Assembly: GCF_051307035.1 (NCBI RefSeq)
Contig: NZ_CP195536.1
Span: 90,001 to 122,000, forward strand
DNA from: Psychrobacter sp. DM4
GTDB taxonomy: Bacteria > Pseudomonadota > Gammaproteobacteria > Pseudomonadales > Moraxellaceae
DNA: 32,000 nucleotides
Direction: 5' to 3'
The position numbers were made by a program, and so were the translations under genes. This document shows positions 9,939 to 30,430 of the stretch, piece after piece (positions within the stretch are counted from its first letter, which is position 1; every line of letters starts with the position of its first letter). The notes beneath the pieces were generated by a model. That model had not been told where the DNA came from. It searched no databases and saw only the letters and a list, made by a program, of their open reading frames with translations.

Positions 9939-10869
9939 ATGATGCAACAAATTCTAGATGACATCGCCGCCCAAATGACAATCGAGACCGAGCGTGGAAA
10001 AGTAGCGGACTACATTCCGCAGCTGGCTCATGTCGATCCTAATCAATTTGGTATTGCCGTCGCGACTCCTGATGGGCAAGTCTATAGCGCAGGAGATGCC
10101 AGTACGCTGTTCTCCATACAAAGTATCTCTAAAGTATTTACGCTAACTATTGGTCTTAGCAAACTTGGCAGTACCCTGTGGAATCATGTCGGTCGTGAGC
10201 CCTCAGGCGACCCCTTTAACTCCATTACCATACTCGAGTATGAGTCGGGCAGGCCGCGTAATCCCTTTATCAATGCGGGCGCGATTGCGGTAGTCGATGC
10301 CATTACTATGGGACGCGAGCCAAAAGAGATATTGGATGAGATTATACAGTTTGTGCATTTTATAGCAGACGATGAGTCGATCTGCTTTGATTATAAAGTA
10401 GCAAGGTCTGAGATCGATCACGAGGATCGCAACGCCGCGCTCGCTCATTTTATGAAGTCTTTTGGTCATCTGCAACATGACGTCGATAAGATACTCAATA
10501 CTTACTTTCATCAATGCTCGATTGCCATTAGCTGTGAGCTGTGAGCAGTTAGCCCGTGCTGGTCTGTTTTTGGTCTCTAACGGTATCAATGAGCCCACAG
10601 GAGCAAAGGTGATCAGCCCGCAGCAATCTAAGCGGATTAATTCACTGATGATGATGTGTGGTCATTACGATGGCTCTGGCGAGTTTGCCTATCAGGTGGG
10701 TCTCCCAGGCAAAAGCGGCGTCGGTGGCGGCATTCTAACAATAGCACCGGGTAAGGGCGCAATCGCAGTATGGTCACCTGGCCTAAATCCAGTGGGTAAC
10801 TCAGAACTTGGCACAAAAGCATTAGAGCTACTGGTAGAAAAAACAGGATGGTCGGTATTTTCAAACTAA
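9939..10869 (+). pseudogene. glsA: Glutaminase A gene disrupted by a 7-bp tandem duplication (frameshift)
   Basis: Two overlapping ORFs (9939-10544 and 10462-10869) together cover a complete glutaminase (…FSIQSISKVFT… / …[12 protein letters not shown]…GKSGVGGGI…). At 10530-10546 the sequence reads agctgtg-agctgtg-agc. Deleting one 7-mer restores …[15 protein letters not shown]… and a 307-codon ORF. Confidence 0.85.
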
Positions 10870-13109: not shown

Positions 13110-13691
13110 CTAAACAGTAATATGCTTTGGCACATGGATATCAATGCGTAGTTTAGGCAAACCTTGCAAGTGCTTTTTGATAAGCGGCAGCGTGACGTCA
13201 TGCCAGTCTAGAGGAAGGGGAGCTGCGGTATGCTCTCTTGCATGGTCTAAACTATCATGCTCTGCCTTATTAGAAGAATGTTCAAACAGTAGGGGGCGGG
13301 CGAGCATAGCAATTTTGCGTACGCCTTTGTAGCGTATAAGGGGCATAAGTTGTTTAGATAAGTCTGTGAGCGCTGCTGTCAACCAAGCGGTACGCGCTGG
13401 ATGATAAGGATGATCTGATATGACTAGATTAGCGATATAGCTTGGCTGATTGCTATGATTACTGATGCCAAGACCTGAGTGCTCACGTACGCGCTTGTGT
13501 ATCAAGCAGGTTCCAGTCTTTAAGCTGCCATCAATACAGGCTTTGCGATAGCGCTGGTAATTATCAGGATAAAGAATTTTGGTGCGGGCAAGGACAGGAT
13601 CTAATAACGTACCAGCAGTGTTCACGGGTAAAATAAGCAGCTGTACGCTGCTATTTAGGATAGGCGCATGCGTTAACTGTATGGTCGCCAT
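13110..13691 (-). CDS. Hypothetical protein, possibly macro-domain-like
   Basis: 193-aa ORF, last gene in the prlC-side string. The N-terminal pattern VQLLILPVNTAGTLLDPVLARTKILYPDNYQRYRKACIDGSLKTGTCL resembles the macro-domain layout (xxVN..G.....A..i...yP..y..Y). The functional call is weak. Confidence 0.5.
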   Translation of the reverse strand: MATIQLTHAPILNSSVQLLILPVNTAGTLLDPVLARTKILYPDNYQRYRKACIDGSLKTGTCLIHKRVREHSGLGISNHSNQPSYIANLVISDHPYHPARTAWLTAALTDLSKQLMPLIRYKGVRKIAMLARPLLFEHSSNKAEHDSLDHAREHTAAPLPLDWHDVTLPLIKKHLQGLPKLRIDIHVPKHITV

Positions 13692-13707: not shown

Positions 13708-14289
13708 TTATTCTATAATAGCTTTACGACGCTTTTGTGCCTCTAACTGAGCGATTTGTGCTTCTAGTAGCGCGATTTGTTCTGCTTTCATCTGGGTTAA
13801 TTGTTTTGTCATAGCGATTTGTTCCGCAGCCAGTCGCTCTTGTTCCGCAAAACGTTGCTTCTCATCGTTTAATCGGTCTATCTCTTCTTTGGCAAGACTG
13901 TCAGTTGCTGGTAGCGGTGCCTCTATGATTGTCTTAGGATTGGGGATATCGACCGTTTGAATACTGATACTGTCTTTATTATCTAAGGTGCTAGTAGCAG
14001 TATCGTCAAGATTATCAGTGCTATCGTTATTATCAATATCAATATCGCTAGCATCCGCTACTGGTATGATCGAAGCTGACTGAGCCATCTTACCTTGTTC
14101 TTCTACTGTCGATATGACGATAGTTGTTCCCTCATTATCTAGATCATCAGCGGTAGACTGTGACCAAAATAAGTAGGCCAAGATAATCAAGACAACTATT
14201 AGTGTGATAGCGATCCATAATAATGGAGCAGATCGGTGCTTGGGCTGTGCATATCGGTTAAAGGTAGGTCGCGGTTTCTTTGATTTCAT
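13708..14289 (-). CDS. Membrane-anchored protein with acidic linker and C-terminal coiled coil (hypothetical)
   Basis: Basic N-terminus, one TM helix (LLWIAITLIVVLIILAYLFW), a D/N/S/T-rich linker, and a heptad-like C-terminus (…AEQIALLEAQIAQLEAQKRRK). It lies 16 nt upstream of the next gene. Confidence 0.65.
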   Translation of the reverse strand: MKSKKPRPTFNRYAQPKHRSAPLLWIAITLIVVLIILAYLFWSQSTADDLDNEGTTIVISTVEEQGKMAQSASIIPVADASDIDIDNNDSTDNLDDTATSTLDNKDSISIQTVDIPNPKTIIEAPLPATDSLAKEEIDRLNDEKQRFAEQERLAAEQIAMTKQLTQMKAEQIALLEAQIAQLEAQKRRKAIIE

Positions 14290-17254: not shown

Positions 17255-18367
17255 ATGAAAGCAACATTGAAGAGTTTACGTGAGACAAAAGCTAATCCTG
17301 CTGTCAGTATCTTTGTAAAGACCCATCGTGAGCATCCTGCTAATGAAAAAGATCCTATCGCCCTCAAAAATCAATTAAAGGTCGCAGAAGAGCGTCTAAA
17401 TAAAGAGTACGATAAGAACACGGCAACCACTATTATAGATAGTATTCATGCCAAGACCGATGAGCTCAATCATAATTATAACTTAGATACTTTAGCCATC
17501 TTTGCAAGTGTCAATGATGTACAGATTATTCGCATGCCATTAGATACAACAGAGCGCGTCGTAATCTCAGACAGCTTTGCAACCCGTGATCTAGTACGTG
17601 ACATGGCAAGCGCGGTACATTTTTATACCGTCGTATTGACTCGTGATATGGCCCGTTTAATTGAAGCCTCTAACGATCGCGTCGTTGCCGAATTTGACAA
17701 AGACGATGACAAGCAAAACAATATGGAAAACATTGCCTTTCCAGTTGAGAATAATGGTTTATATACTACCAGCGACGGCGGATCAGATCGCTCATCGAAC
17801 AACGAAAGTAGCCATCTAAAAGAATTCTTTAACCAAGTGGATAAAAGCGTTCAAGAGCTGTGGGGTGAGCACAAGATGCCACTCGTTATCGTTGGTGACG
17901 CCAAAAACATCGGCTACTACAAAGAGGTTTGTGATCGTCCAGACAATATTATCGCGACAGTCTCAAATGTGACCAACCTTGATGATGGTAATGCACAGCA
18001 TATCGTCGATGGCGTACAAGACGCCGTAGAGGAATACCGTGCCTCATTACATGAAGCGGCTATGGGAGAGATTGATAAAGCGCGCGGTGCAGATATGTTA
18101 CGTACGGACTTGCAAGAAGTCTATCGTGGTGCTTTTCAAGGTGCTGGTGAGACGTTATATGTCCGTCGTGGTTATATAAAGCCTGCTAAGATTGACGAAA
18201 AAGCGCAAACACTAACCCTAGCAGATGACGCTGCTGGTGAAGGCGTTACAGATGACGCGATTGGCGTCATCATTGAGCATGTCATTCACAACGGTGGTGA
18301 TGTGGTCTTTATGCCAGAGGAAATCATGGGCGAAGATCAACCTATTGCTCTAGTGACTCGTTATTAG
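17255..18367 (+). CDS. Bacterial aeRF1/Pelota-like protein (baeRF / Balon-type candidate ribosome hibernation factor)
   Basis: 370-aa ORF with AAGGA SD (17242-17246) and a strong terminator. The N-terminal baeRF-like pattern is LKSLRETKANPAVSIFVKTHREHP…IALKNQLKVAEERL. The domain-2-like strand is FYTVVLTRDMARLIEASND, and SDGGSDRS sits where eRF1 has GGQ. The domain-3 motif is GAGETLYV (cf. GAVETLLV) and the C-terminus is GGDVVFMPEE…PIALVTRY* (cf. GG.V..vs…GIAAILRY). Confidence 0.7.
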   Translation: MKATLKSLRETKANPAVSIFVKTHREHPANEKDPIALKNQLKVAEERLNKEYDKNTATTIIDSIHAKTDELNHNYNLDTLAIFASVNDVQIIRMPLDTTERVVISDSFATRDLVRDMASAVHFYTVVLTRDMARLIEASNDRVVAEFDKDDDKQNNMENIAFPVENNGLYTTSDGGSDRSSNNESSHLKEFFNQVDKSVQELWGEHKMPLVIVGDAKNIGYYKEVCDRPDNIIATVSNVTNLDDGNAQHIVDGVQDAVEEYRASLHEAAMGEIDKARGADMLRTDLQEVYRGAFQGAGETLYVRRGYIKPAKIDEKAQTLTLADDAAGEGVTDDAIGVIIEHVIHNGGDVVFMPEEIMGEDQPIALVTRY

Positions 18368-18467: not shown

Positions 18468-18499
18468 GTTGATACCTATTGAATATTACCAAAGTTAGG

Positions 18500-19336
18500 A
18501 TGCACATTATGCTCATTCCAAACAATGACGTCGGTCATTTAGTCAAAAGTACGCAAGCCTTTGTCTCATTAGCGCTACGCGGTGGACGTGGGGTTATGGG
18601 TACAGGACAACCTATGCAACCTAAAAAGATGCTTGTTCTTTATGAGCATGAAGCCTGTCCTTACTCGCGCCGCGTACGTGAAGTCATGACCCGCCTAAAT
18701 TTAGATTACGAGAGTCGTCCTAGTCCGCACAAAGGTCACGTTTATCGTGATGAGCTAGAAGAGCTGACTGGCAAAACGCAAGTGCCCTTTATGATCGATG
18801 AGAACTTCGCTGAAGGGGAGGAGGGCCATCAAATATTGGACTCACAAGCCATCATCGATCATCTGTTCACACATTATTCTAAAAAAGGCTCAACGCCCCC
18901 TAAGTTTCAACGTGAGCATAAAAAAGACAATGCTTCGATAGTCAATAAAGCGGCTAGCATGGCCTCTATGATGCGCGGTGTGAGGGCAGTCCATCCTAAA
19001 AAGAATGAGGCGCGCGGCAAACCTGATGAGCCATTGCATCTATACGGATTTGAGGCTAGTCCCTTTTGCCGGCTAGTACGTGAGCGCTTAAGTGAATTAG
19101 AAGTCGGTTACATCAACCACAACGTCGCTCGTGAGCAGATAAAAGATATCGGTGCTTTTGGTTTTCACTTGACGCTAGGTGAGTATCAGCCTATCAAAGG
19201 CGGCAAACGTGATCAGCTTATGAATGGCGAGTTAAACGGTAAGCTGCTATTTCCTTATCTAGTCGATCCCAACACAGGGGCGCAGATGTACGAGTCGCAG
19301 GACATCATCAGTTATCTTAATGATATTTATGGCTAG
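18500..19336 (+). CDS. Tandem glutaredoxin-like / GST N-terminal (thioredoxin-fold) domain protein
   Basis: It has two Grx/GST-N-like modules. The first is MLVLYEHEACPYSRRVREVM…GKTQVPFMIDEN…ILDSQAIIDHL. The second is LHLYGFEASPFCRLVRERL…FPYLVDPNTGAQMYESQDIISYL. The ORF is open from TTG 18479; ATG 18500 is used here, but the start is uncertain. Confidence 0.8.
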   Translation: MHIMLIPNNDVGHLVKSTQAFVSLALRGGRGVMGTGQPMQPKKMLVLYEHEACPYSRRVREVMTRLNLDYESRPSPHKGHVYRDELEELTGKTQVPFMIDENFAEGEEGHQILDSQAIIDHLFTHYSKKGSTPPKFQREHKKDNASIVNKAASMASMMRGVRAVHPKKNEARGKPDEPLHLYGFEASPFCRLVRERLSELEVGYINHNVAREQIKDIGAFGFHLTLGEYQPIKGGKRDQLMNGELNGKLLFPYLVDPNTGAQMYESQDIISYLNDIYG

Positions 19337-19363
19337 TATTGAATAGTCAGATTAATATTGCAA

Positions 19364-19398
19364 AAAAGGTGATTAGCTTTGGCTATATCATCTTTTTT
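19364..19398 (+). terminator. Probable terminator after the Grx/GST-like gene
   Basis: A-run, then an imperfect hairpin (gattagc / gcta(t)atc), then T7 at 19392-19398. Confidence 0.5.
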
Positions 19399-19500
19399 TA
19401 TAAATTCTAGTTGTTAATGATTGACTTTATCAAAAGGTAATAACTATTTAGGGCAAAATGCTGATAAAAACCAATAACGTATGATGACCTAATTTACTTA

Positions 19501-19546
19501 TCTTGGTGCAAAATGTTCTACGATAGTGCGCTTTTTTGCACCAAGA
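19501..19546. repeat. Perfect 13-bp inverted repeat with 20-nt spacer
   Basis: tcttggtgcaaaa (19501-19513) is the exact reverse complement of ttttgcaccaaga (19534-19546). A T-rich stretch follows 4 nt later. Confidence 0.6.
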
Positions 19547-19829
19547 TATATTTTTTAAGGGTGTTTAGGCTATAGTAAGTCATTCAAATAAACTATCTAA
19601 ATTTTTCTAACTTATGAAATGAAATGAATTATTTATTCTATTATCCCTAATGACTTTATTTTTAGTTAATGACGTTTTAGGGTTAGCAGATATAGGGTGA
19701 GTCTTGTATAAAAGCGTTTTTAATATTAAAAACTTGTATGACCTTGAAGGCTCTACTCAAGATAAGTCGGATAAATTAGAGTGTTGTAATAGATTATGTT
19801 TTTGGACATAAGTAGGTTTGGCACATCAT

Positions 19830-19858
19830 TTGCAACCTTTAGAGGGTAAGTTTATATA
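19830..19858 (+). promoter_or_regulatory. Candidate sigma70 promoter for the riboswitch-led operon
   Basis: TTGCAA (19830-19835), a 17-bp spacer, then TATATA (19853-19858). The predicted start lies ~25-30 nt upstream of the riboswitch CTAGGG block. Confidence 0.4.
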
Positions 19859-19890
19859 TTCTTAATTTCAATTAAGAGCTAAAAAAAGCT

Positions 19891-20010
19891 GTCTAGGGTC
19901 CCGGTATAGCACGCACTAAAAGTTTGCAAATAACTTTTGCGCTATATGTCTGGTTCGAGAGATGGCGGTTCGCAAGAACTACACGGAGGGATAAAAGCCC
20001 GGGAGACTCT
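19891..20010 (+). promoter_or_regulatory. Guanidine-I riboswitch aptamer (ykkC-yxkD motif, subtype 1)
   Basis: All three conserved ykkC blocks are present in the correct order: CTAGGGTCCCGG (19893-19904), CTGGTTCGAGAG (19950-19961) and ACACGGAGGGATAAAAGCCCGGGAGA (19981-20006). An extended P1 arm lies between the first two, with a perfect inner hairpin aaaagtt/aactttt at 19918-19938. The element sits immediately 5' of a urea-carboxylase-type operon, the classic genomic context. Confidence 0.85.
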
Positions 20011-20053
20011 AAGTGACACTGATCACTTAAGCTCTGTAATCGTGGGAGTTTTT

Positions 20054-20902
20054 ATGTCAACGGATCCAAAAAACGCATCAAATTTGCCTAGTTTTGATGA
20101 CTCTAAAAGTCAAAATACTGACAACCAAAGCTCTGCTACTCAAAACCTTGATAGCCAAAATCTAGCCCTATTTCAAACGCTGATTCCCGGTGGTCATCAC
20201 TGGTGTGGTCGTATCAATAGACATCATACTTTGACACTCACCTCATTGGCTGACAACGCCAACTTGAGTCTATACGTCGTCAATGCTGACGAAAAACTCG
20301 AACGTTTCAACATGCCGGATAGCCTTAAAGCGCAGCATACGCTGTATCTATCGCAAGGCCATGTCCTGTACTCGGATATGGGTCGAGTGCTCGCTTCTAT
20401 TACTAGTGACGATCACGGCTGGAACGATGTGCTGTGCGGCGCTAGTAGTGCTACTACTATTGCCAATCAGTATGGCAAAAAAACCTTTCAAGAGGCGCGC
20501 AATGATCGCCATTTAAGCGGTGTTGATGGCTTGCTCACTGATATGGCAAAGTTTGCGCTAACGGCTGCTGACCTCACGGCAACGCTCAACCTATTCTCTA
20601 AAGTAGTGCCTGATAATGACGGTCAACTGTCCTACATCACCAGCGATAATACCAATCAAGCCATTACCTTACGCTTCGAGATGAATTGCTTAGTGTTCTT
20701 ATGCAATGCCCCGCATCCTCTAGACCCAGCAACTATTTATAATCCTGCCGATATTGAACTCAGCCTCAACCGCTCACAACCGATTGCTTCAATAAGTGAC
20801 AGCGATGTCTGCCGTGATTCCTGTGCGCAAAATCAGCGCGGCTTCGAAAACAACGCGCGTTACTTTGGTGATTATGTACCAGCGACCGCAGCATTAATTT
20901 GA
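20054..20902 (+). CDS. Urea-carboxylase-associated DUF1989 protein (putative carboxyguanidine deiminase subunit)
   Basis: DUF1989-like sequence (…LIPGGHHWCGRINRHHTLTLTSL…NMPDSLKAQHTLYLSQGHVLYSDMGRVLASIT…). GGGAG SD (20044-20048) lies 5 nt before ATG 20054. The track start at 19937 would translate the riboswitch. Confidence 0.85.
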   Translation: MSTDPKNASNLPSFDDSKSQNTDNQSSATQNLDSQNLALFQTLIPGGHHWCGRINRHHTLTLTSLADNANLSLYVVNADEKLERFNMPDSLKAQHTLYLSQGHVLYSDMGRVLASITSDDHGWNDVLCGASSATTIANQYGKKTFQEARNDRHLSGVDGLLTDMAKFALTAADLTATLNLFSKVVPDNDGQLSYITSDNTNQAITLRFEMNCLVFLCNAPHPLDPATIYNPADIELSLNRSQPIASISDSDVCRDSCAQNQRGFENNARYFGDYVPATAALI

Positions 20903-20956: not shown

Positions 20957-21643
20957 ATGACTATTTTAAATGAAGAATTAAAGCAATCGAGTACGACAGT
21001 GAGCGAATTAACGATCGATTTAGACCGTGTAGTATCGCGTGAGGTTTGCGCAGCTGGCGCAGGCTGGATGGCAGAGGTTAAGCAAAATCAAACCTTAAGA
21101 ATTATAGATTTAGAGGGCAATCAAGCGGTAGACACCTTATTTATCAGCAGTGCTGATACTGACGAGCGTTATAGCGCTACCGATACTTTAGCGAATAACA
21201 AAAATGTCTATTTAGAAAAAGGAAGCGATCTATTTAGCAATCAAGGCCGCGTCATCGCGACTATCACCGATGACAATTGTGGTCGTCATGACACGCTAGG
21301 CGGCGCTTGTTCTTGTGAGAGTAATACTGTGCGTTATGCGCAGGATACTTATCCGATGCACAGCTGTCGCAACAATTTTATGTATAGCTTAGCGACGCAT
21401 CCTATCGCGCAGCAGTTCCAACTCAACGTGCGTCATATTGGCCCTAACATTAATTTCTTTATGAATGTTCCCGTGACAAGCGATGGTCAATTAGCTTTTG
21501 ACGACGGAATATCAGCGCCCGGTAAGTATGTCGATATCACCGCGCAGATGGATATGATCGTACTAATATCGAATTGCCCTCAGCTTAATAATCCTTGTAA
21601 TGCTTACAACCCGACGCCTATTGAATTAGTGATTTATGAATAA
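20957..21643 (+). CDS. Urea-carboxylase-associated DUF1989 protein, second paralogue (putative carboxyguanidine deiminase subunit)
   Basis: It is a paralogue of the preceding gene (…GAGWMAEVKQNQTLRIIDLEGNQAVDTLF…SNQGRVIATITDD…NPCNAYNPTPIELVIYE). Pairing of two DUF1989 genes next to the carboxylase is the usual arrangement. Confidence 0.9.
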   Translation: MTILNEELKQSSTTVSELTIDLDRVVSREVCAAGAGWMAEVKQNQTLRIIDLEGNQAVDTLFISSADTDERYSATDTLANNKNVYLEKGSDLFSNQGRVIATITDDNCGRHDTLGGACSCESNTVRYAQDTYPMHSCRNNFMYSLATHPIAQQFQLNVRHIGPNINFFMNVPVTSDGQLAFDDGISAPGKYVDITAQMDMIVLISNCPQLNNPCNAYNPTPIELVIYE

Positions 21644-21717: not shown

Positions 21718-24700
21718 ATGTTCAAAAAAGTATTAATCGCTAATCGTGGTGCCATTACTTGTCGCGTGATACGCACGTTGAAGCAGATGAACATCCTCTC
21801 TGTCGCGGTCTACACTGATGCGGATCGCGGCTCATTGCATGTCAGTGAAGCTGATGAAGCGATAAAAATAGGCTCAGGATCTGCCAGCGAGAGTTATCTC
21901 AATATCGATAAAGTCATACAGGCGGCACTAGAGTCAGGCGCTGAAGCTATTCATCCGGGTTATGGATTTTTATCAGAGAACGCTGAATTCTGTGCGCGTT
22001 GTACCGAGGCGGGCATTGCGTTTATGGGGCCAACGCCTGAGCAACTATTGAGCTTTGGCCTCAAACACACCGCGCGCGAGCTGGCAACGCAAAGCCAAGT
22101 GCCCCTGTTACCAGGTAGCGATCTATTACAGGATATAAACGAAGCGGTAAGCGAAGCTGAGCGTATCGGCTATCCCGTCATGCTCAAGAGCACCGCTGGC
22201 GGCGGCGGTATTGGCATGCGCTTGGTTGCCAATGAGATAGAGCTCATCGAGGCCTATGAAGCCGTTCATCATTTAGCACAAAATAACTTTAGTAATGCCG
22301 GACTCTATCTTGAGAAGTTTGTAGAAAACGCGCGGCATATCGAAGTCCAAGTATTCGGTGATGGTCACGGCAATATTATCACTTTAGGAGAGCGCGACTG
22401 TTCAATTCAACGCCGCAATCAAAAGGTCGTAGAAGAGACGCCTGCGCCGCTTTTATCTGATAGTCAAAGACAGCAGTTACAACAAGTATCTACTGCCCTA
22501 ATGCAACAAGTGAATTACCGCTCTGCTGGCACGGTAGAGTTTGTGATGGATGTCGCAACCCAGAACTTTTACTTTTTGGAGGTTAATACACGCCTGCAAG
22601 TGGAGCACGGCATCACCGAAGAGATTTATCAAGTTGATATCGTGCGCTGGATGATTGAGCTGGCGGCAGGTGAGTTTGTAGCGCCAACATTACCGCTAAA
22701 GCCTTCAGGACATTCTATTGAAGTGCGTCTATACGCTGAGGATCCAATAAAGAATTTTCAACCGAGTACGGGTTTATTCACTGACGTCTATTTTGATCCA
22801 GAGGCACGAGTCGAGACTTGGATAGAGACCGGTAGCAACATCTCCGCTTTTTATGATCCGATGATCGCCAAAATCATAGTGACGGCTCCTGATCGCGAGC
22901 AAGCACTGGCTAAGATGACTCAGACACTCGCGGTATCTCGTATAGCGGGCATCGAGACAAATTTAGAGTATTTACAGCAGATATTTACATCGCCTGTGTT
23001 CATCAAGGGCGAGCAAACGACAAAGCTGTTAAATAGCTTTAGCTGGTTAAGTCAAAAAATTGAAGTACTAGTATCAGGGGTACAGACAGCGGTTCAAGAT
23101 GTGGTAGGTCGCCAAGGATATTGGAATGTTGGGGTACCGCCATCAGGTGCTATTGATGCGTTAAGTCTCAATACTGCTAATCAGCTCTTGGGCAATGAGT
23201 TCAATAGCGCAGGTCTAGAATGTGTGGTCACTGGACCGACGCTACGCTTTCATTGCGACAGCCAGATTGCGATCACTGGTGGCGCGATGGTCTGCACTTT
23301 GGATGAGCAAGTTATTCCCATGTGGCAAAGCGTGACCGTGAAAAAAGGTCAAGTCTTAGAATGTGGCAACATCACCTCAGGCTGTCGAAGCTATATCGGT
23401 ATCAAAGGCGGTATGGTCATTCCTGAATATTTAGGGAGCCAAGCGACGTTTAGCTTAGGTAAGTTTGGCGGGCACGGTGGTAGAAACCTCATCGTTGGTG
23501 ACATGCTACCCATTCAACAATTCGCAGTAGAGACTAACACTCAAATCGTCACCCAACACTCAATTCAGTGCTTAGCTGATAAGCAAAGACCTGAATTTAA
23601 TGGCCTATGGCAGATAGCGGTCATCTATGGGCCACATGGCGCACCAGACTTTTTTACGGAGTCCGATGTAGCACAATTCTTTGAACACCAGTGGGACGTC
23701 CATCATAACTCTAGCCGTACAGGTATTCGTCTCGTTGGCCCCAAACCTGAGTGGGCACGCGAAGATGGCGGTGAGGCGGGTCTGCACCCCTCAAACATTC
23801 ATGACAATGCTTATGCGGTCGGCGCTATCGACTTCACAGGGGATATGCCTATTATTTTAGGCCCTGATGGCCCAAGTCTAGGCGGGTTTGTGTGTTTAAG
23901 CGTTATCGTTGCTAGCGAGCGCTGGAAGATGGGTCAGCTCAAAGCTGGTGATAAAGTACAGTTTGTTCCGATTAGCTCTGAGCAAGCCAATAACTTGCAC
24001 CAGCGCTACGAGACGATGCTCAAAGCTGACGATACTCAATTAGTAGATTACGCTCTGCCTATGACGGTTGAGCCCGCCACTTTATCGACCGCGATTCTCG
24101 ATTCAATATCTAGCAGCGCTGAGCTGGCTGATGACTGCCCAAAAGTGGTCTATCGTCCTGCTGGTGATTGCTACCTGTTGATCGAATACGGCGCGCAAAT
24201 ACTTGATTTGCAATTGCGTTTTCGCGTTCAGGCGCTGATGGAGTACCTGCAAGCTCAACAGATCGCCGCCTTTGTAGATTTGACCCCGGGCATTCGCTCC
24301 CTGCTTGTGCATTATCGTCCTCTAGAGCTTTCGAAAACTGAGCTGTTAGCTATTCTCAAGCGAGCTGAGCATGAGTTACCTGACATCAAAAACATGCAAG
24401 TACCTTCTAGAATTGTACATCTACCGATGGCTTGGGCCGACTCACAAACTGCGCTGGCAACTGAGAAGTATCAGCAGTTAGTGCGACCTGATGCGCCTTG
24501 GTGCCCTGACAATATTGAATTTATCAGACGCACTAATGGACTTAAGTCAGCACAAGCGGTCAAGGATATCGTCTATCAGGCCAGCTACTTAGTTATGGGT
24601 TTAGGTGATGTCTATTTAGGCGCCCCTGTCGCCACGCCACTTGACCCTAGACACCGATTGGTCACTACCAAATACAATCCTGCTCGAACGTGGACGCCAG

Positions 24701-25368
24701 AGAACGCTGTTGGTATCGGTGGTGCTTATCTGTGTGTCTATGGTATGGAAGGGCCCGGTGGCTATCAGTTCGTCGGTAGAACGATTCAGATATGGAATCG
24801 TTATCGCCCGCATCCAAGCTTTGAGCCTGATAAGCCTTGGCTGCTTAGATTCTTTGACCAGATCCGCTTTTATGAAGTCAGTGAAGATGAGCTGTTATCG
24901 ATGCGTGACTCATTCGAGGCGGGCGAATTAGCAGTTAAGATTGAAGATAGTGTGCTTAATTTAGCTGAATACTATCAGATGCTCAATGACAATAAGCAAG
25001 ATATTCAAAGCTTTAAACAGCAGCAGCAAACGAGCTTTGAGGCTGAGCGTCAACGCTGGCAGCAGCAGGGACTAGACAGCTATATCAATGACGAGATAAC
25101 AGTAGCTGAGGTGGAATCAGATATCGTGATTCCTGAAGGCGGCATGGTGGTGCAAGCACACATGATGGGCAGTATTTGGAAGATTAACTGCGCGGTAGGC
25201 GATGTGGTTAGTAAAGGACAAGTACTCGCTATCGTTGAAGCTATGAAAATTGAGCTCCCTATACTCTCGCCAGTAAATATGACGGTGGTCAGCATTGAGA
25301 CCGAAGTCGGTATGACGGTCAAAACCGAGCAGCCATTATTTGTACTAGCGCCAACAGCGGCTGAGTAA
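21718..25368 (+). CDS. Biotin-dependent urea carboxylase family enzyme, probably guanidine carboxylase
   Basis: The 1216-aa protein has an N-terminal biotin carboxylase/ATP-grasp domain (KVLIANRGAITCRVIRT, MLKSTAGGGGIGMRL, EVNTRLQVEH). Central allophanate-hydrolase-subunit-like (KipA/KipI-type) carboxyltransferase domains follow. The C-terminal biotinyl domain has the EAMKIE motif (Lys codon 25246-25248). Confidence 0.93.
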   Translation: MFKKVLIANRGAITCRVIRTLKQMNILSVAVYTDADRGSLHVSEADEAIKIGSGSASESYLNIDKVIQAALESGAEAIHPGYGFLSENAEFCARCTEAGIAFMGPTPEQLLSFGLKHTARELATQSQVPLLPGSDLLQDINEAVSEAERIGYPVMLKSTAGGGGIGMRLVANEIELIEAYEAVHHLAQNNFSNAGLYLEKFVENARHIEVQVFGDGHGNIITLGERDCSIQRRNQKVVEETPAPLLSDSQRQQLQQVSTALMQQVNYRSAGTVEFVMDVATQNFYFLEVNTRLQVEHGITEEIYQVDIVRWMIELAAGEFVAPTLPLKPSGHSIEVRLYAEDPIKNFQPSTGLFTDVYFDPEARVETWIETGSNISAFYDPMIAKIIVTAPDREQALAKMTQTLAVSRIAGIETNLEYLQQIFTSPVFIKGEQTTKLLNSFSWLSQKIEVLVSGVQTAVQDVVGRQGYWNVGVPPSGAIDALSLNTANQLLGNEFNSAGLECVVTGPTLRFHCDSQIAITGGAMVCTLDEQVIPMWQSVTVKKGQVLECGNITSGCRSYIGIKGGMVIPEYLGSQATFSLGKFGGHGGRNLIVGDMLPIQQFAVETNTQIVTQHSIQCLADKQRPEFNGLWQIAVIYGPHGAPDFFTESDVAQFFEHQWDVHHNSSRTGIRLVGPKPEWAREDGGEAGLHPSNIHDNAYAVGAIDFTGDMPIILGPDGPSLGGFVCLSVIVASERWKMGQLKAGDKVQFVPISSEQANNLHQRYETMLKADDTQLVDYALPMTVEPATLSTAILDSISSSAELADDCPKVVYRPAGDCYLLIEYGAQILDLQLRFRVQALMEYLQAQQIAAFVDLTPGIRSLLVHYRPLELSKTELLAILKRAEHELPDIKNMQVPSRIVHLPMAWADSQTALATEKYQQLVRPDAPWCPDNIEFIRRTNGLKSAQAVKDIVYQASYLVMGLGDVYLGAPVATPLDPRHRLVTTKYNPARTWTPENAVGIGGAYLCVYGMEGPGGYQFVGRTIQIWNRYRPHPSFEPDKPWLLRFFDQIRFYEVSEDELLSMRDSFEAGELAVKIEDSVLNLAEYYQMLNDNKQDIQSFKQQQQTSFEAERQRWQQQGLDSYINDEITVAEVESDIVIPEGGMVVQAHMMGSIWKINCAVGDVVSKGQVLAIVEAMKIELPILSPVNMTVVSIETEVGMTVKTEQPLFVLAPTAAE

Positions 25369-25410: not shown

Positions 25411-27222
25411 ATGCAAACGAATTGGACTATAGATGACTGGCAGCAAGCGTATGATCGAGGCGATTGTCAGTTGACTGATCTCATAGATTATGTCGCTCAG
25501 ATAAACAACGACAATAATGCTTGGATAGCGATAGCGACCGAGCAGCAACTTCATGAGCAAATTAAAGTTATCAGCGCTCAAAAGTCAGCTGATTTACCGC
25601 TATACGGTATTCCTTTTGGCGTCAAAGACAATATCGATGTCGCTGGATTTGATACCACAGCCGCTTGTCCCGCTAGTCTTTATGTCGCCGAAAAAGACGC
25701 TTATGTGGTCGCAAAGCTCAAAGCTGCCGGCGCAATCGTCATTGGTAAGACTAATCTTGATCAATTTGCCACGGGACTCGTCGGCACACGCTCGCCACAT
25801 GGGGCGGTCAGCAATAGCTTTGATGCTAAATACATCAGTGGTGGTTCAAGCTCAGGATCAGCGATCAGTGTAGCCAATGGCGTCGTGCCTTTTGCATTAG
25901 GGACAGATACCGCAGGTTCCGGGCGCGTTCCCGCTGGGCACAACAACATCGTTGGTCTTAAACCTACTAAGGGGTGGCTGTCAACAACAGGTCTGATTCC
26001 GGCTTGTCAGCTTCATGATGTCATTTCTATCTTTGCGCTTACTATCAAAGAGGCGTGGCAGGTCGCTAGCATTATGCAAGGTTATGATGAGCAAGACAGC
26101 TATAGTCGAACTCATCCCAAAACAGCGCCAGTCGCTTTTAGTTTGGGCAGAGTTGCTATTCCTAATAGCCTAGAGTTTTATGGTGATAATCATTCCACGC
26201 AAGCCTTTGAGCAAGCTATTGAACGCTTAGAGAAATTAGGTTATGACGTCTGTCCTATCGATTTTGACGTGTTTGATGAGTTAGCAGATGCACTTTATAA
26301 CGACAGCTGGGTCAGTGAACGCGCTTTTGCTATCGATAATCGAGTTAACCGCGATGCGCTGTTACCTATTACTCGTCAAATTATTAGCCAAGCAGACAAC
26401 TATAGCGCTGTAGATGCGATGGCAGCGGAGTACTCCAGAGCTAAGCTGAGTCGCCGCATCGATCAGATAATGACTCAGTTTGATGCGCTTATGGTACCGA
26501 CCGCGCCAACGATTTATACCATTGAAGAGTTAGAGGCCGATCCGCTGAGCAAAAACAGCCACATGGGCGCTTATACCAATTTTGTCAATTTGGCAGACTT
26601 ATCAGCGTTAGCGCTACCCAATGTAATAGCTGAAGACGGACTACCGCGTGGCGTTACTTTTATTGCCAAGGCTTGGCACGATGAAGCGCTAGCTAACTTT
26701 GGCCACCGGTGGCAGTTAGCGCTCGATATTCCACTAGGCACTTCTAATCAATCCTATCAATCTATAAGTAGTACCGAATCATCGGCGCTTATACCTTTAC
26801 AAGACACCCCGAACATAAATAGCAGCATCAAGTTAGCGGTAGTTGGCGCGCACTTGAGCGGTATGCCGCTTAACTATCAGCTAACCGATAGGGGCGGCGT
26901 ATTAGCACAAAAAACACAAACCGCAGACGGCTATAAGCTCTTTGCTTTATCGGGCTCAACACCTGCCAAACCCGGATTACAGTGTCATATTGAGGGCAGC
27001 GCTATCGAAGTCGAAGTTTGGCATATTCCAACCGCAAGATTTGGTGAGATTGTCAACGAAGTACCTGCGCCTTTAGGCATCGGTAACGTCGAGCTGAGTG
27101 ATGGCAGCTGGGTTAACAGCTTTATTTGCGAAGGGTATGTCTTTGAACCAGAGTTTAATGGCGGCACTGACATTACTGAATTTGGCGGCTGGCGCGCTTA
27201 TATCGCTACGCTAAATTCGTAA
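25411..27222 (+). CDS. Allophanate hydrolase (amidase-signature family)
   Basis: Amidase signature GGSSSGSAISVANG…GTDTAGSGRVPA, plus the extra C-terminal allophanate-hydrolase domain (…VGAHLSGMPLNYQL…), 603 aa in total. Confidence 0.92.
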   Translation: MQTNWTIDDWQQAYDRGDCQLTDLIDYVAQINNDNNAWIAIATEQQLHEQIKVISAQKSADLPLYGIPFGVKDNIDVAGFDTTAACPASLYVAEKDAYVVAKLKAAGAIVIGKTNLDQFATGLVGTRSPHGAVSNSFDAKYISGGSSSGSAISVANGVVPFALGTDTAGSGRVPAGHNNIVGLKPTKGWLSTTGLIPACQLHDVISIFALTIKEAWQVASIMQGYDEQDSYSRTHPKTAPVAFSLGRVAIPNSLEFYGDNHSTQAFEQAIERLEKLGYDVCPIDFDVFDELADALYNDSWVSERAFAIDNRVNRDALLPITRQIISQADNYSAVDAMAAEYSRAKLSRRIDQIMTQFDALMVPTAPTIYTIEELEADPLSKNSHMGAYTNFVNLADLSALALPNVIAEDGLPRGVTFIAKAWHDEALANFGHRWQLALDIPLGTSNQSYQSISSTESSALIPLQDTPNINSSIKLAVVGAHLSGMPLNYQLTDRGGVLAQKTQTADGYKLFALSGSTPAKPGLQCHIEGSAIEVEVWHIPTARFGEIVNEVPAPLGIGNVELSDGSWVNSFICEGYVFEPEFNGGTDITEFGGWRAYIATLNS

Positions 27223-27389: not shown

Positions 27390-28415
27390 ATGAACAGACG
27401 TCTATTTACCTTTGCTATTTTATCAAGCGTTATGTTATTCGGTTGCGATAACACCGCTACGGTAACCGCACCTGAGGGTGAAGTCGCCGCTACCGAAACT
27501 ACCGCTACCAACAGCGATCCGATATCCATCGGCTATAGCGACTGGCCAGGCTGGGTTGCTTGGCAAATCGCTATTGAAAAAGGCTGGTTTGAAGAGGCAG
27601 GTGTCAATGTTGAGTTTGAATGGTTTGATTATTCAGCCTCCTTGTCCGCTTTTGCCTCAAACCAACTCGATGCGATCTCAGTCACTAACGGCGACAACTT
27701 AGTCAATGCGGCAAGCGGCAGTGAAGGCATCATTATCTTAGTCAATGACTACTCTAACGGTAACGATCAAATCATTGCCAAGCCTGAGTTTGCAAGCATT
27801 GCCGATCTAAAAGGCAAATCTATTGGCGTTGAAAAAGGCCTAGTTGATCATCTACTACTCAACAGTGCGCTGGCAGATAACGGCATGACCGAGGCCGATG
27901 TGACATTGGTTAATGCGGCGACCAACGAGTTACCCCAAGTATTCGGTAGCGATACTATCAATGCGGTCGCGCTGTGGCAGCCAAATGCTAACCAAGCTTT
28001 GAGCAATGTCGCAGGCTCAAAGGCACTGTATACCTCAGCCGATAAGCCCGGTCTGATCTATGACACTTTAGCGGTTAGTCCAACGAGTCTGGCGGCGAAC
28101 CGAGCTGAATACGCCAAGATTCTACTCGTTTGGGACAAGATCGTCAGCTATATCAATGATCCTGCAACCAGAGATGATGCTATCAAAATCATGTCGACTC
28201 GAGTCAATGTACCCGCAGATCAATATAGCAACTTTTTAGATGGCACTAAGCTACTGAGCCTAGCGGATAACAAAGCGATCTTTGAAAAGTCTGACGACTT
28301 CACCTCTATCTACGGCTCAAGTTATCACGTCAATCGTTTTAACATTGACAATCAGATTTATAACCAAGAGCTTGATATTGATAAGTTAATTTATCCAGAT
28401 CTAATCAACCAGTAA
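27390..28415 (+). CDS. ABC transporter substrate-binding lipoprotein (NitT/TauT, NMT1-like family; urea-carboxylase-region type)
   Basis: Lipoprotein signal MNRRLFTFAILSSVMLFG|C (lipobox LFGC). NMT1/SsuA-like body (ISIGYSDWPGWVAWQIAIEKGWFEEAGVNVEF…). Confidence 0.88.
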   Translation: MNRRLFTFAILSSVMLFGCDNTATVTAPEGEVAATETTATNSDPISIGYSDWPGWVAWQIAIEKGWFEEAGVNVEFEWFDYSASLSAFASNQLDAISVTNGDNLVNAASGSEGIIILVNDYSNGNDQIIAKPEFASIADLKGKSIGVEKGLVDHLLLNSALADNGMTEADVTLVNAATNELPQVFGSDTINAVALWQPNANQALSNVAGSKALYTSADKPGLIYDTLAVSPTSLAANRAEYAKILLVWDKIVSYINDPATRDDAIKIMSTRVNVPADQYSNFLDGTKLLSLADNKAIFEKSDDFTSIYGSSYHVNRFNIDNQIYNQELDIDKLIYPDLINQ

Positions 28416-28422
28416 CTATTTG

Positions 28423-28455
28423 GCATAACTGGCTAAGTCGTTTAGCCAGTTATGC
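28423..28455 (+). other. Perfect 14-bp intercistronic stem-loop (no T-run)
   Basis: gcataactggctaa (28423-28436) pairs exactly with ttagccagttatgc (28442-28455) across a 5-nt loop. It starts 8 nt after the stop of the binding-protein gene. Confidence 0.55.
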
Positions 28456-28579
28456 TATAGCTCAAAAAAGTCGTGGCAAGCATAAAAGAAATAAAGCCTA
28501 GGCCTTTGCGCAGCGACTACCATATTTTATTACTCGTTGTTTATTAATGACTGTCATCAAGTCGCTAAGGGGTTGGCCT

Positions 28580-29521
28580 ATGAGTCAAACAAACCAGTAT
28601 TTAACCAAAAAAACCACCCTTGGGCTTAATGTGCTCTCGTTTTTGATACCTATTTTGTTATGGTGCGCCGTAAGCTATCTGCCTTTTATTTGGCATTCAG
28701 AGGTGCAGATTACTGACGCGGGTAGCATGACGTATTTGCAAGAAGGTAGCCGAATCGACAAGGAATTATTTTTTAGTGAAGCGCAAAGCGCGATGGCGGC
28801 AGGGGATGCACCGCCTCAAGGCAAGCTCGTCAATCCCATTTATCTGCCAGCGCCTCACGAAGTTGCCATAGCGACGTTCACCGCTTTTACCACGCCACCG
28901 GTACAAGAAGACGCGCCTTGGCTGCACGAGAGCTTGTGGCAGAGTATAAAGACCGTCTTTATTGCCTTTTTTATCTCCTCCATAGTCGGTATACCACTAG
29001 GCCTTATCTGCGGATTCTCTGAAAAGATCGCTCAAATTACCCAGCCTTTTGTGGAGTTTTTTCGGTATTTACCAGCACCTGCGTTTGGTCCGCTAGCGGT
29101 AGCCATTTTGGGTATTTACGATGGACCAAAGATTGCCATTATCGTCATCGGTACTTTATTTCAGCAGATTCTTATCATTGCCAATACTACTCGGACGATG
29201 GATGTCGGGCTGATTGAAGCCGGATATACCCTTGGGACTACTAAACTTAAAAGCTTCTATTATGTGTTACTACCAGCCGTTATACCTGACGTCTATCGTG
29301 ATTTGAGAGTGCTATTGGGGTGGGCTTGGACGTATCTAATCGTCGCCGAACTCATCGGTACGACCTCAGGTATTACTTGGTTCATTGTGCAACAAGCGCG
29401 TTATCAGCAATTTGACAATGTTTACGCCGGCATCTTGCTCATTGGTTTTGTGGGATTGGGCACAGATATTTTACTGTACCAATTAGGCAAAAAACTCTTT
29501 AAATGGAAAGCGAGAACGTAG
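28580..29521 (+). CDS. ABC transporter permease (NitT/TauT family)
   Basis: Multi-TM protein with the EAA-type loop IEAGYTLGTTKLKSFYYVLLPAVIP. The ORF is open from ATG 28547. ATG 28580 is preferred because AAGGGG lies 7 nt upstream. Confidence 0.88.
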   Translation: MSQTNQYLTKKTTLGLNVLSFLIPILLWCAVSYLPFIWHSEVQITDAGSMTYLQEGSRIDKELFFSEAQSAMAAGDAPPQGKLVNPIYLPAPHEVAIATFTAFTTPPVQEDAPWLHESLWQSIKTVFIAFFISSIVGIPLGLICGFSEKIAQITQPFVEFFRYLPAPAFGPLAVAILGIYDGPKIAIIVIGTLFQQILIIANTTRTMDVGLIEAGYTLGTTKLKSFYYVLLPAVIPDVYRDLRVLLGWAWTYLIVAELIGTTSGITWFIVQQARYQQFDNVYAGILLIGFVGLGTDILLYQLGKKLFKWKART

Positions 29522-30430
29522 ATGACCATACTCAATAAAGACTTGCCGTTAGTTAATAAAGAAATGGCATCTAGTGACGACTATTTTAAACAGCTTTATC
29601 AGCGTCCAGTAGTGCTAAAAGTGGATAAGCTCACGCAAAAATTTACTGATGGGAAGTCGCAAAAGACGATTCTAAAAGAGATTGATCTACAAATTCATAA
29701 GCGTGAGTTTGTTTGCGTGATTGGGCCTTCTGGCTGTGGTAAATCGACGCTCGGCCGTATCATTGCAGGTCTCGATAGTTATCCAAGTGGTCAGGTCATC
29801 GTCGATGATGAACCTGTCAAAGGGCCGAGTGCTACTAGGGGTATGGTGTTCCAAGGTTATACGCTATTTCCATGGAAAACGGTCAAAGAGAACATCATGT
29901 TTGGACCAATCATGAAAGGTCAAAGCCATTCAAGTGCTAATCGCAGTGCGCGTGAGTGGCTCGATATCGTTGGACTTACTAAGTATAAAAACCATTACCC
30001 GCATCAGCTCTCAGGCGGTATGAAACAACGCGTCGCTATTGCCCGTGCGCTCATTAACGAGCCCAAGGTATTGATAATGGATGAGCCTTTTGGGGCGCTA
30101 GATCCTTATACTCGGCAAAAAATGCAAAAGCATCTGCTTGATCTATGGCGCAATATTGACATTACCATCGTCTTTATTACTCATGATATGGATGAAGCGG
30201 TGCTGTTGTCAGATCGTATCTTAGTTCTCAAAGCCAATCCAGGTGAAATACAAGATATCATTGAGGTGCCATTAGCGCGACCGCGTACCCCTGAGATGAT
30301 GACTGATCCGCAGTTTTTAGAGATAAAATCCTATATTAATAGTGTGGTTCATAGCCCGCACATTGAGGTAGATCCGGCTTTGGTTGATTTGCCTGACATT
30401 CCAAGAATGATACCTCTGGATAAAAGCTAA
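29522..30430 (+). CDS. ABC transporter ATP-binding protein (NitT/TauT family)
   Basis: Walker A GPSGCGKST, signature LSGGMKQR, Walker B LIMDEPFGALD, and H-loop ITHD. Its ATG immediately follows the permease TAG (tagatg), which suggests translational coupling. Confidence 0.93.
   Translation: MTILNKDLPLVNKEMASSDDYFKQLYQRPVVLKVDKLTQKFTDGKSQKTILKEIDLQIHKREFVCVIGPSGCGKSTLGRIIAGLDSYPSGQVIVDDEPVKGPSATRGMVFQGYTLFPWKTVKENIMFGPIMKGQSHSSANRSAREWLDIVGLTKYKNHYPHQLSGGMKQRVAIARALINEPKVLIMDEPFGALDPYTRQKMQKHLLDLWRNIDITIVFITHDMDEAVLLSDRILVLKANPGEIQDIIEVPLARPRTPEMMTDPQFLEIKSYINSVVHSPHIEVDPALVDLPDIPRMIPLDKS

Follow-up and report, generated by a model that had tools for sequence, protein, structure and literature searches.

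The 32,000-nt stretch of Psychrobacter sp. DM4 DNA analysed here (called the window; position 1 is its first letter) almost certainly carries, at 19882-20007 on the forward strand, the aptamer of a guanidine-I (ykkC subtype 1) riboswitch, as judged from its sequence. Taken as a whole, the locus is probably a guanidine-I ON switch that follows a sigma-54 promoter, acts by masking the Shine-Dalgarno (SD) sequence and precedes a seven-gene guanidine operon.

The Rfam model RF00442, whose gathering score is 63 bits, matches 19882-20007 over its full length (model positions 1-107) with 73.7 bits and an E value of 1.6e-11 over the whole 32-kb window. This is the sole Rfam match in the window, and a permissive scan of 19780-20120 returned no other Rfam family at E<=10. 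An earlier reading of the DNA from its letters and open reading frames (ORFs) alone, hereafter the sequence-only reading, had proposed a ykkC subtype 1 element on the basis of three conserved blocks and a perfect 7-bp hairpin; all four lie exactly where it had placed them (Table 1), as do the two start codons, the SD sequence and the second 7-bp hairpin that it named, and the score obtained with the covariance model agrees with its assignment to RF00442. The P1b arm is unusually long, with a 30-nt insertion relative to the Rfam consensus. Its sequence and length vary freely among relatives, as expected of a variable arm, and it shows compensatory changes in a consensus folding of 13 sequences, i.e. 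the window and 12 Psychrobacter leaders.

We collected related loci in a scan of one genome per species, using as a query the product of the first gene of the operon, UAAP1. The 37 loci comprise 15 from Psychrobacter, 20 from Acinetobacter or other Moraxellaceae and two from Pseudomonadales/Pseudomonadota metagenome-assembled genomes (MAGs); the nearest relatives of UAAP1 are Psychrobacter proteins with 72-76% amino-acid identity, and a public gene index returned no exact match to the 282-residue protein. RF00442 scores above its gathering score in 35 of the 37 loci (74.8-90.7 bits), always upstream of the operon, and the aptamer and the same gene occur together in 33 of the 35 Moraxellaceae loci and in both MAGs. 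In the window, the aptamer is found in the 5' leader of the operon, 46 nt upstream of UAAP1. The leader block that directly precedes P1 is kept in the window and in Psychrobacter. It includes AGAGCU (19875-19880), complementary to AGCUCU (20030-20035) after the hairpin of the expression platform, and this pairing is present in folds in which the aptamer is forced; in the bound state, it might close off the element as a whole.

On the strength of structure modelling, we lean towards control at the level of translation, by masking of the SD sequence and the AUG. The sequence-only reading had seen no intrinsic terminator between the aptamer and the SD sequence, only a 7-bp hairpin at 20010-20029, and had considered translational control more likely. 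Both the scans and the folding point the same way. No terminator-like sites were detected in 19300-20400, nor in the leader of Psychrobacter locus L004; the hairpin has seven base pairs and no T-run directly after it; and a GC-rich hairpin built on the 3' strand of P3 and followed by a U-run, as in an intrinsic-terminator platform, was not found. The folding also supplied candidates for the anti-SD pairing that could not be made out by eye, in the form of two registers that we called A and B.

In register A, the P3 A-loop and the 3' strand of P3 are predicted to pair with the ribosome-binding site (RBS), with A20047 bulged, so that the SD sequence, the spacer and the start codon's first two bases are covered. 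The helix can be extended by pairing of G19988/G19989 with C20058/U20057 and of C19984/G19985 with G20062/C20061. Register A is found in the minimum-free-energy (MFE) structure of the window leader (folded from 19882 to 20075), in which P1, P1a/P1b and P2 are kept and P3 is opened, and it was also seen in Psychrobacter. Register B, with AAGAACU-A-CACGG opposite UCGUG-GG-AGUUUUU, is the pairing preferred by RNAalifold for the 13 aligned sequences. It is kept in 13/13 of them with nearly all cells paired, and the window differs from Psychrobacter in this register only by pyrimidine swaps opposite G. Register energies and the opening upon forcing of P3 were calculated for 12 sequences, the window and Psychrobacter leaders; the MFE structure adopts register A in five of them, including the window, and register B in seven. 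Both registers use nucleotides required by the bound aptamer and thus both predict an ON switch.

Forcing the ligand-bound P3 in the window costs 8.2 kcal/mol in the nearest-neighbour model, and the unpaired probability of 20049-20055 then rises from ~0.05 to 0.4-0.6. In all 12 leaders, the partner of the RBS is almost exclusively the aptamer 3' domain, and forced P3 raises the mean unpaired probability of the RBS from 0.22-0.35 to 0.46-0.61. The P3-RBS duplex of the window has a predicted energy of -16.9 kcal/mol, as compared with -10.7 +/- 2.8 in dinucleotide shuffles. The hairpin at 20010-20029, with an invariant stem and a variable loop in the 15 Psychrobacter loci, forms in every modelled state, and we read it as a constant spacer that would bring the RBS beside P3.

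In the mechanism that we propose, the ligand-dependent 3' domain of the aptamer would pair with the RBS in register A or B when guanidine is absent, and either register would bury the SD sequence and the AUG, leaving UAAP1 untranslated. Binding of guanidinium would lock P3 and its A-loop onto P1, withdraw the pairing nucleotides and free the SD sequence and the AUG. For all seven genes to be silent in the OFF state, polarity would be required, exerted by Rho or by mRNA decay. Over its first 130 nt, UAAP1 is rich in C and poor in G (C/G ratio of 2.0, and of 2.9 in 20100-20180); a Rho loading site could have this composition, but the composition is no proof of one. The helices that sequester the SD sequence, the ON behaviour and the polarity are parts of the model that we infer.

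Several observations weigh against translational control as described. Registers A and B are mutually exclusive and lie within ~2-3 kcal/mol of each other in most of the 12 sequences (up to ~6 kcal/mol), and they are indistinguishable. The platform is almost invariant in the clade and hence offers no true covariation. The P3-RBS duplex is only moderately significant, as 2.4% of the shuffles reach the value of the window and 2-30% do so in Psychrobacter, and one of 25 other, unrelated RBS regions in the window yields a duplex of -16.6 kcal/mol. In addition, a U-run does not speak specifically for anti-SD pairing, because locus L034, from a Moraxellaceae MAG, has UAAP1 inside an operon with a similar GAGGAUUUUUUAUG RBS (2400-2630) and without the aptamer. 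Masking of the first cistron by itself leaves the control of the six genes behind it unexplained. Moreover, the guanidine-I riboswitches investigated to date work through transcription terminators (PMC12186494, PMC12704784), which makes a translational platform the less documented of the two modes. Lastly, the same modelling applied to Acinetobacter loci, which have the same aptamer, shows no opening of the RBS with forced P3.

The P3-RBS duplexes of Acinetobacter are no better than those of shuffles either, and neither result supports an extension of the SD-sequestration model to that genus. The Acinetobacter leaders (L016-L035) carry, 5-10 nt before the SD sequence, the motif (U/A)AUCCG, which is complementary to CGGA / GGAU in the 5' strand of P3. 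The switching model of the window does not account for these leaders.

The main alternative is that the switch acts on transcription, as in the classical guanidine-I design, with SD sequestration secondary to it or operating alongside. An irregular OFF-state hairpin (19997-20049), its 5' strand provided by the 3' strand of P3, would then form an atypical intrinsic terminator with UUUUU at 20049-20053. The CCC of P3 (19998-20000) can indeed pair with GGG(A)G directly before the conserved run of five to seven U, the A-loop provides an A-tract before the stem as in many terminators, and the characterized guanidine-I switches are transcriptional (PMC12186494). A canonical terminator design on the same aptamer is also found in L038, an unrelated locus described below. 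However, the scan came back empty in the window and in L004, and the 51-nt hairpin is irregular, with only three to four GC closing pairs, interrupted by a bulge, at the U-run; an 8-nt asymmetric loop parts this closing stem from the rest of the hairpin. The closing stem is weaker still in Psychrobacter, where it is reduced to GG, and the U-run is itself the spacer between the SD sequence and the AUG. We thus regard a terminator as unlikely and retain translational control as the preferred platform. Such a platform would be the equivalent, at the level of translation, of the classical arrangement, where the 3' strand of P3 supplies the 5' half of a terminator (PMC5340920).

Alignment of the regions upstream of the aptamers exposed an invariant, perfect sigma-54 -24/-12 motif, TGGCAC-ATCAT-TTGCA in the window, that we consider the likely promoter of the operon on sequence grounds. 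It is the single match in the window, where 0.11 would be expected by chance, and 36 of the 37 loci (L001-L036) carry it on the + strand, immediately upstream of the aptamer or gene; the 37th locus begins at the aptamer. The usual spacing from the -12 element most likely places the transcription start near 19845. The distance from this predicted start to P1 is ~10 nt in Acinetobacter and ~40-50 nt in the window and Psychrobacter. A genome-wide study has predicted sigma-54 control of proteobacterial COG3665 'urea carboxylase' genes (PMC12316311). Sigma-54 transcription would depend on an enhancer-binding activator, probably a regulator of nitrogen status, which suggests that expression needs both nitrogen limitation and guanidine. 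Neither rpoN nor an activator gene was found within the window. A promoter scan of 19300-20400 detected no sigma-70-like site on the + strand; a sigma-70 promoter picked by eye (TTGCAA-19-TATATT) was rejected, as its spacing is off, it is missing from that scan and its TTGCA is the sigma-54 -12 element.

Farther upstream, a TGGTGCA-N13-TAGTGCG element may be the enhancer site for such an activator. Its TGGTGCA and TAGTGC parts do not vary among the window and eight Psychrobacter loci, and in Psychrobacter it lies ~270-315 bp upstream of the sigma-54 motif. Since the window and L004 have different neighbour genes on the upstream side, the element appears to travel with the operon. It does not match the canonical NtrC palindrome, of which none was found upstream of the sigma-54 motif; that search returned only TGGTGCA/TGCACCA half-sites in everted order, together with the TGGTGCA...TAGTGCG element. 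The element is enclosed by a perfect inverted repeat, and the T-run after that repeat makes a terminator also possible.

Two rare substitutions set the window aptamer apart. We numbered aptamer residues according to Battaglia 2017, Knappenberger 2018 and Trachman 2021 and mapped the window to the Dickeya dadantii aptamer (PMC5340920), so that CUAGGGUUC corresponds to C6-C14, GUCCGAGAG to G31-G39 and CACGGNGGGANAAAAGCCCGGGAG to C64-G87. In the internal loop CUAGGGUUC / GUCCGAGAG, the receptor of the P3 A-loop, 16 of 18 positions match; the remaining two are U13, which is C, and C33, which is U. Both substitutions spare the ligand-contacting bases, and both sit in the receptor. They add to the points against the proposed switch, as the consensus bases at 19900 (T) and 19955 (C) occur in every one of the 35 related aptamers, the window aptamer has the lowest RF00442 score, below the range of its relatives, and the C19900 + T19955 double variant was not found in a metagenome collection. 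With position 33 relaxed, U13C was found once in that collection, in the unrelated high-GC aptamer of L038 (RF00442, 75.9 bits). L038 itself (1171-1310) has a textbook terminator that overlaps the P3 3' strand, CCCGGGAGA...UCUCGGG followed by a U-run, in contrast with the platform of the window. The function of the window aptamer may be reduced or altered by the two substitutions, which might retune its affinity.

These features raise the question of whether the aptamer is a decaying or weakened relic in which C19900 and T19955 impair A-loop docking or folding, so that expression is set mainly by the sigma-54 promoter. Besides the invariance of both positions, the low score and the missing double variant, such a view could draw on L027 (1356-1430), an Acinetobacter MAG locus that has kept the sigma-54 motif and the gene and lost the aptamer, and on a frameshifted glutaminase gene in the window, a sign of some damage or error in the sequence. 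However, the score exceeds the gathering score by 10 bits, the ligand-contacting nucleotides are all intact, replacement of G-C by G-U is conservative and U13C is also seen in a different guanidine-I aptamer that scores above the threshold. Each of the seven operon genes has its full length, and the platform is nearly base for base that of Psychrobacter. We therefore consider a relic quite unlikely.

The genes downstream make up a canonical guanidine carboxylase operon. Seven co-directional genes encode a deiminase pair, a carboxylase, a hydrolase and a three-gene ATP-binding cassette (ABC) importer, and their products score above curated cutoffs, apart from the binding protein with the 'putative urea ABC' model TIGR03427 (139 versus a cutoff of 334). 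In the carboxylase, whose annotated family is urea carboxylase, D705 aligns with N1330 and D964 with D1584 of the Kluyveromyces lactis urea amidolyase (3va7_A/5i8i_A). Asp at position 1330 marks guanidine carboxylases, whereas urea carboxylases have Asn (PMC11410670; PMC12186494); Asp at position 1584 completes the Asp/Asp signature by which guanidine carboxylases were called (PMC11410670). From sequence, these 'urea' genes are thus assigned to guanidine assimilation. Guanidine carboxylase, heteromeric carboxyguanidine deiminase and allophanate hydrolase form an established pathway whose control by guanidine-I elements is well documented (PMC11410670, PMC12186494). The ABC importer presumably takes up guanidine, as suggested by its context (PMC12186494).

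The sensing of another ligand by a ykkC subtype 2 variant is very improbable. The aptamers of subtypes 2a and 2b, which bind guanosine tetraphosphate (ppGpp) and phosphoribosyl pyrophosphate (PRPP), share with guanidine-I the global fold, most conserved nucleotides and the ON logic, and a covariance-model match by itself does not exclude a variant for ppGpp, PRPP, a nucleoside diphosphate or an unknown ligand (PMC5912903). Subtype 2 differs by a pyrimidine at the A38/A46 position (PMC6031431, PMC8457001) and likewise at that of G67 (PMC5340920, PMC6031431), an extra P0 helix and association with amino-acid or purine genes. In contrast, the window has an adenine at 19960 and a guanine at 19985, the latter equivalent to G67 at the pocket's floor, and its genes include a guanidine carboxylase with the Asp signature. 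G19986, G20003 and A20004 correspond to G68, G85 and A86, and the C64-G84 long-range pair (C19982/G20002) and the C66-G87 pair (C19984/G20005) are both present. The subtype call is made because of these discriminating nucleotides and not because other Rfam families are missing at E<=10. The subtype proposed by the sequence-only reading is borne out: the pocket and discriminator nucleotides are all of the guanidine type, and neither a score below the gathering score nor a subtype 2 signature, two of the findings that it had named as contrary, turned up.

The mechanical ORF list begins the first gene at TTG 19937, as the sequence-only reading had reported. That reading had taken this for an over-extension and ATG 20054, preceded by GGGAG, for the true start, and we reach the same conclusion. 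ATG 20054, in frame with TTG 19937 and 117 nt from it, is the real start of UAAP1, because the GGGAG SD sequence sits five bases upstream, because GGAG, the U-run and ATGTCA are co-located in 15 of 15 Psychrobacter loci, because the UAAP1 model aligns from residue 39 of the short form only, and because the 39 codons from TTG 19937 cross P1b, P1, P2 and P3. That the 321-residue ORF is nonetheless the real gene and the RNA similarity incidental is hardly credible: the frame is open from 19937 and holds an in-frame ATG at 19946, but neither codon is preceded by an SD sequence, the extension covers an RNA motif of E 1.6e-11, and both the homologues and the family model agree with the short form. 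The first gene of the operon should thus be annotated from 20054, not from 19937.

Table 1. Coordinates of the RNA elements, promoter elements and operon genes in the window
Feature	Position	Strand	Details
Inverted repeat, perfect, 15 bp	19499-19513 / 19534-19548		TATCTTGGTGCAAAA / TTTTGCACCAAGATA; 20-nt spacer; encloses the 19504-19530 element
Candidate upstream element	19504-19530	+	TGGTGCA-N13-TAGTGCG; ~300 bp upstream of the sigma-54 motif
Putative sigma-54 promoter	19819-19834	+	TGGCACATCATTTGCA; -24 GG / -12 GC, exact consensus spacing
5' leader block	19873-19887	+	TAAGAGCTAAAAAAA; directly before P1
Aptamer P1	19888-19893 / 19961-19966	+	RF00442
Conserved internal-loop strands	19893-19904 and 19950-19961	+	CTAGGGTCCCGG and CTGGTTCGAGAG
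Substitution U13 -> C	19900	+	conserved internal loop; G11-U32-U13 base triple
P1a/P1b arm	19901-19953	+	
Distal P1b hairpin, 7 bp	19918-19938	+	AAAAGTT/AACTTTT
Substitution C33 -> U (T19955)	19955	+	G10-C33 pair becomes G-U
Subtype discriminator A19960	19960	+	A38 in D. dadantii, A46 in Sulfobacillus acidophilus, A55 in Burkholderia; in the guanidinium pocket
P2	19967-19971 / 19976-19980	+	
Predicted anti-SD register B	19974-19986	+	AAGAACUACACGG; P2 3' strand, junction and CACGG; pairs with UCGUGGGAGUUUUU at 20040-20053
Third conserved block	19981-20006	+	ACACGGAGGGATAAAAGCCCGGGAGA
P3	19984-20005	+	GGG 19988-19990, A-loop 19991-19997, CCC 19998-20000
Predicted anti-SD register A	19991-20000	+	AUAAAAGCCC; P3 A-loop and P3 3' strand; pairs with GG(A)GUUUUUAU at 20045-20055
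Platform hairpin, 7 bp	20010-20029	+	TAAGTGA/TCACTTA, loop CACUGA; extendable to 20003-20034 via GAG/CUC and CU/AG
Ribosome-binding site	20044-20056	+	SD GGGAG 20044-20048, U5 spacer, ATG 20054-20056
UAAP1-type DUF1989 protein, carboxyguanidine deiminase subunit	20054-20902	+	282 residues; PF09347; TIGR03425, 259 versus cutoff 206 bits
UAAP2-type DUF1989 protein, second carboxyguanidine deiminase subunit	20957-21643	+	TIGR03424, 305 versus cutoff 285 bits
Biotin-dependent guanidine carboxylase	21718-25368	+	1216 residues; annotated family urea carboxylase; TIGR02712, 1808 bits
Allophanate hydrolase	25411-27222	+	TIGR02713, 753 bits
ABC importer	27390-30430	+	NMT1/SsuA-type binding protein 27390-28415, permease 28547-29521, ATPase 29522-30430

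Other features of the window were also recorded. A baeRF family 3 / AOC03_06830-type ribosome hibernation factor gene lies upstream of the operon (17255-18367, + strand; NF052287, 515 bits) and is syntenic with the operon in Psychrobacter L004 (1151-2263); a GST/glutaredoxin-like gene (18479-19336) is an insertion relative to that locus. The frameshifted glutaminase gene at 9939-10869 on the + strand is split into an ORF at 9939-10544, which covers positions 4-200 of the model, and another in a different frame at 10462-10869, which covers positions 186-305; it is either a pseudogene or the result of a sequencing error. A 193-residue ORF on the - strand (13110-13691) has a weak match to the DarG antitoxin macrodomain (NF048014, E 1.5e-9, far under the cutoff), and an unannotated 193-residue ORF (13708-14289) adjoins it.

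The locus adds one more member to a well-known riboswitch class, in a canonical genomic context. With the guanidine-I (RF00442) elements of D. dadantii, S. acidophilus, Burkholderia sp. TJI49 and Synechocystis gdmH, it shares the P1/P1a/P1b-P2-P3 architecture, the conserved blocks, the pocket equivalents of G37/A38, G67, G68, G84 and G85, the association with guanidine carboxylase pathway genes, and an expected ON logic in which the 3' part of P3 serves as switching sequence. It differs from them in its long P1b, the U13C and C33U substitutions, the putative sigma-54 promoter directly upstream and the lack of a terminator, the switching sequence being complementary to the SD sequence, the spacer and the AUG. 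Guanidine-II (mini-ykkC) and guanidine-III riboswitches are similar in that guanidine is proposed to free the SD sequence and turn on translation of the same kinds of genes (PMC12186494, PMC5558903), but their folds, two kissing hairpins and a pseudoknot, respectively, are unrelated to that of the window aptamer. At the level of the operon, Pseudomonas syringae, Raoultella terrigena and Klebsiella michiganensis have the same enzyme set under guanidine riboswitch control (PMC12186494, PMC11410670). In the window, all seven genes follow a single guanidine-I element and are arranged as deiminase-carboxylase-hydrolase-transporter, whereas enterobacterial operons are divided between guanidine-I and guanidine-II elements. 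Synechocystis gdmH (PMC12704784) likewise has a nitrogen-status transcription signal in series with a guanidine-I riboswitch; it differs in that the signal is NtcA rather than sigma-54, which is a prediction here, and in its guanidinase pathway and proposed transcriptional platform.

We tentatively put forward, as a serious possibility, a more specific view in which the guanidine-I element has been rewired in the Psychrobacter-like clade from a terminator to a purely translational platform, where the SD sequence and the AUG are masked by the P3 A-loop and 3' strand or by the P2/J2-3 strand, in series with the sigma-54 promoter, with expression confined to conditions that combine nitrogen limitation with the presence of guanidine and with polarity exerted through Rho or mRNA decay. 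Knowledge of the riboswitch class itself is unchanged by these data. The locus adds a clean case, conserved in Moraxellaceae, of a guanidine-I aptamer without a terminator; in this class, which has been described as transcriptional, such a mode has seldom been documented. The combination of the putative sigma-54 promoter and the riboswitch would constitute a two-input design, responding to nitrogen limitation and guanidine, that parallels the NtcA-plus-riboswitch arrangement of cyanobacteria.

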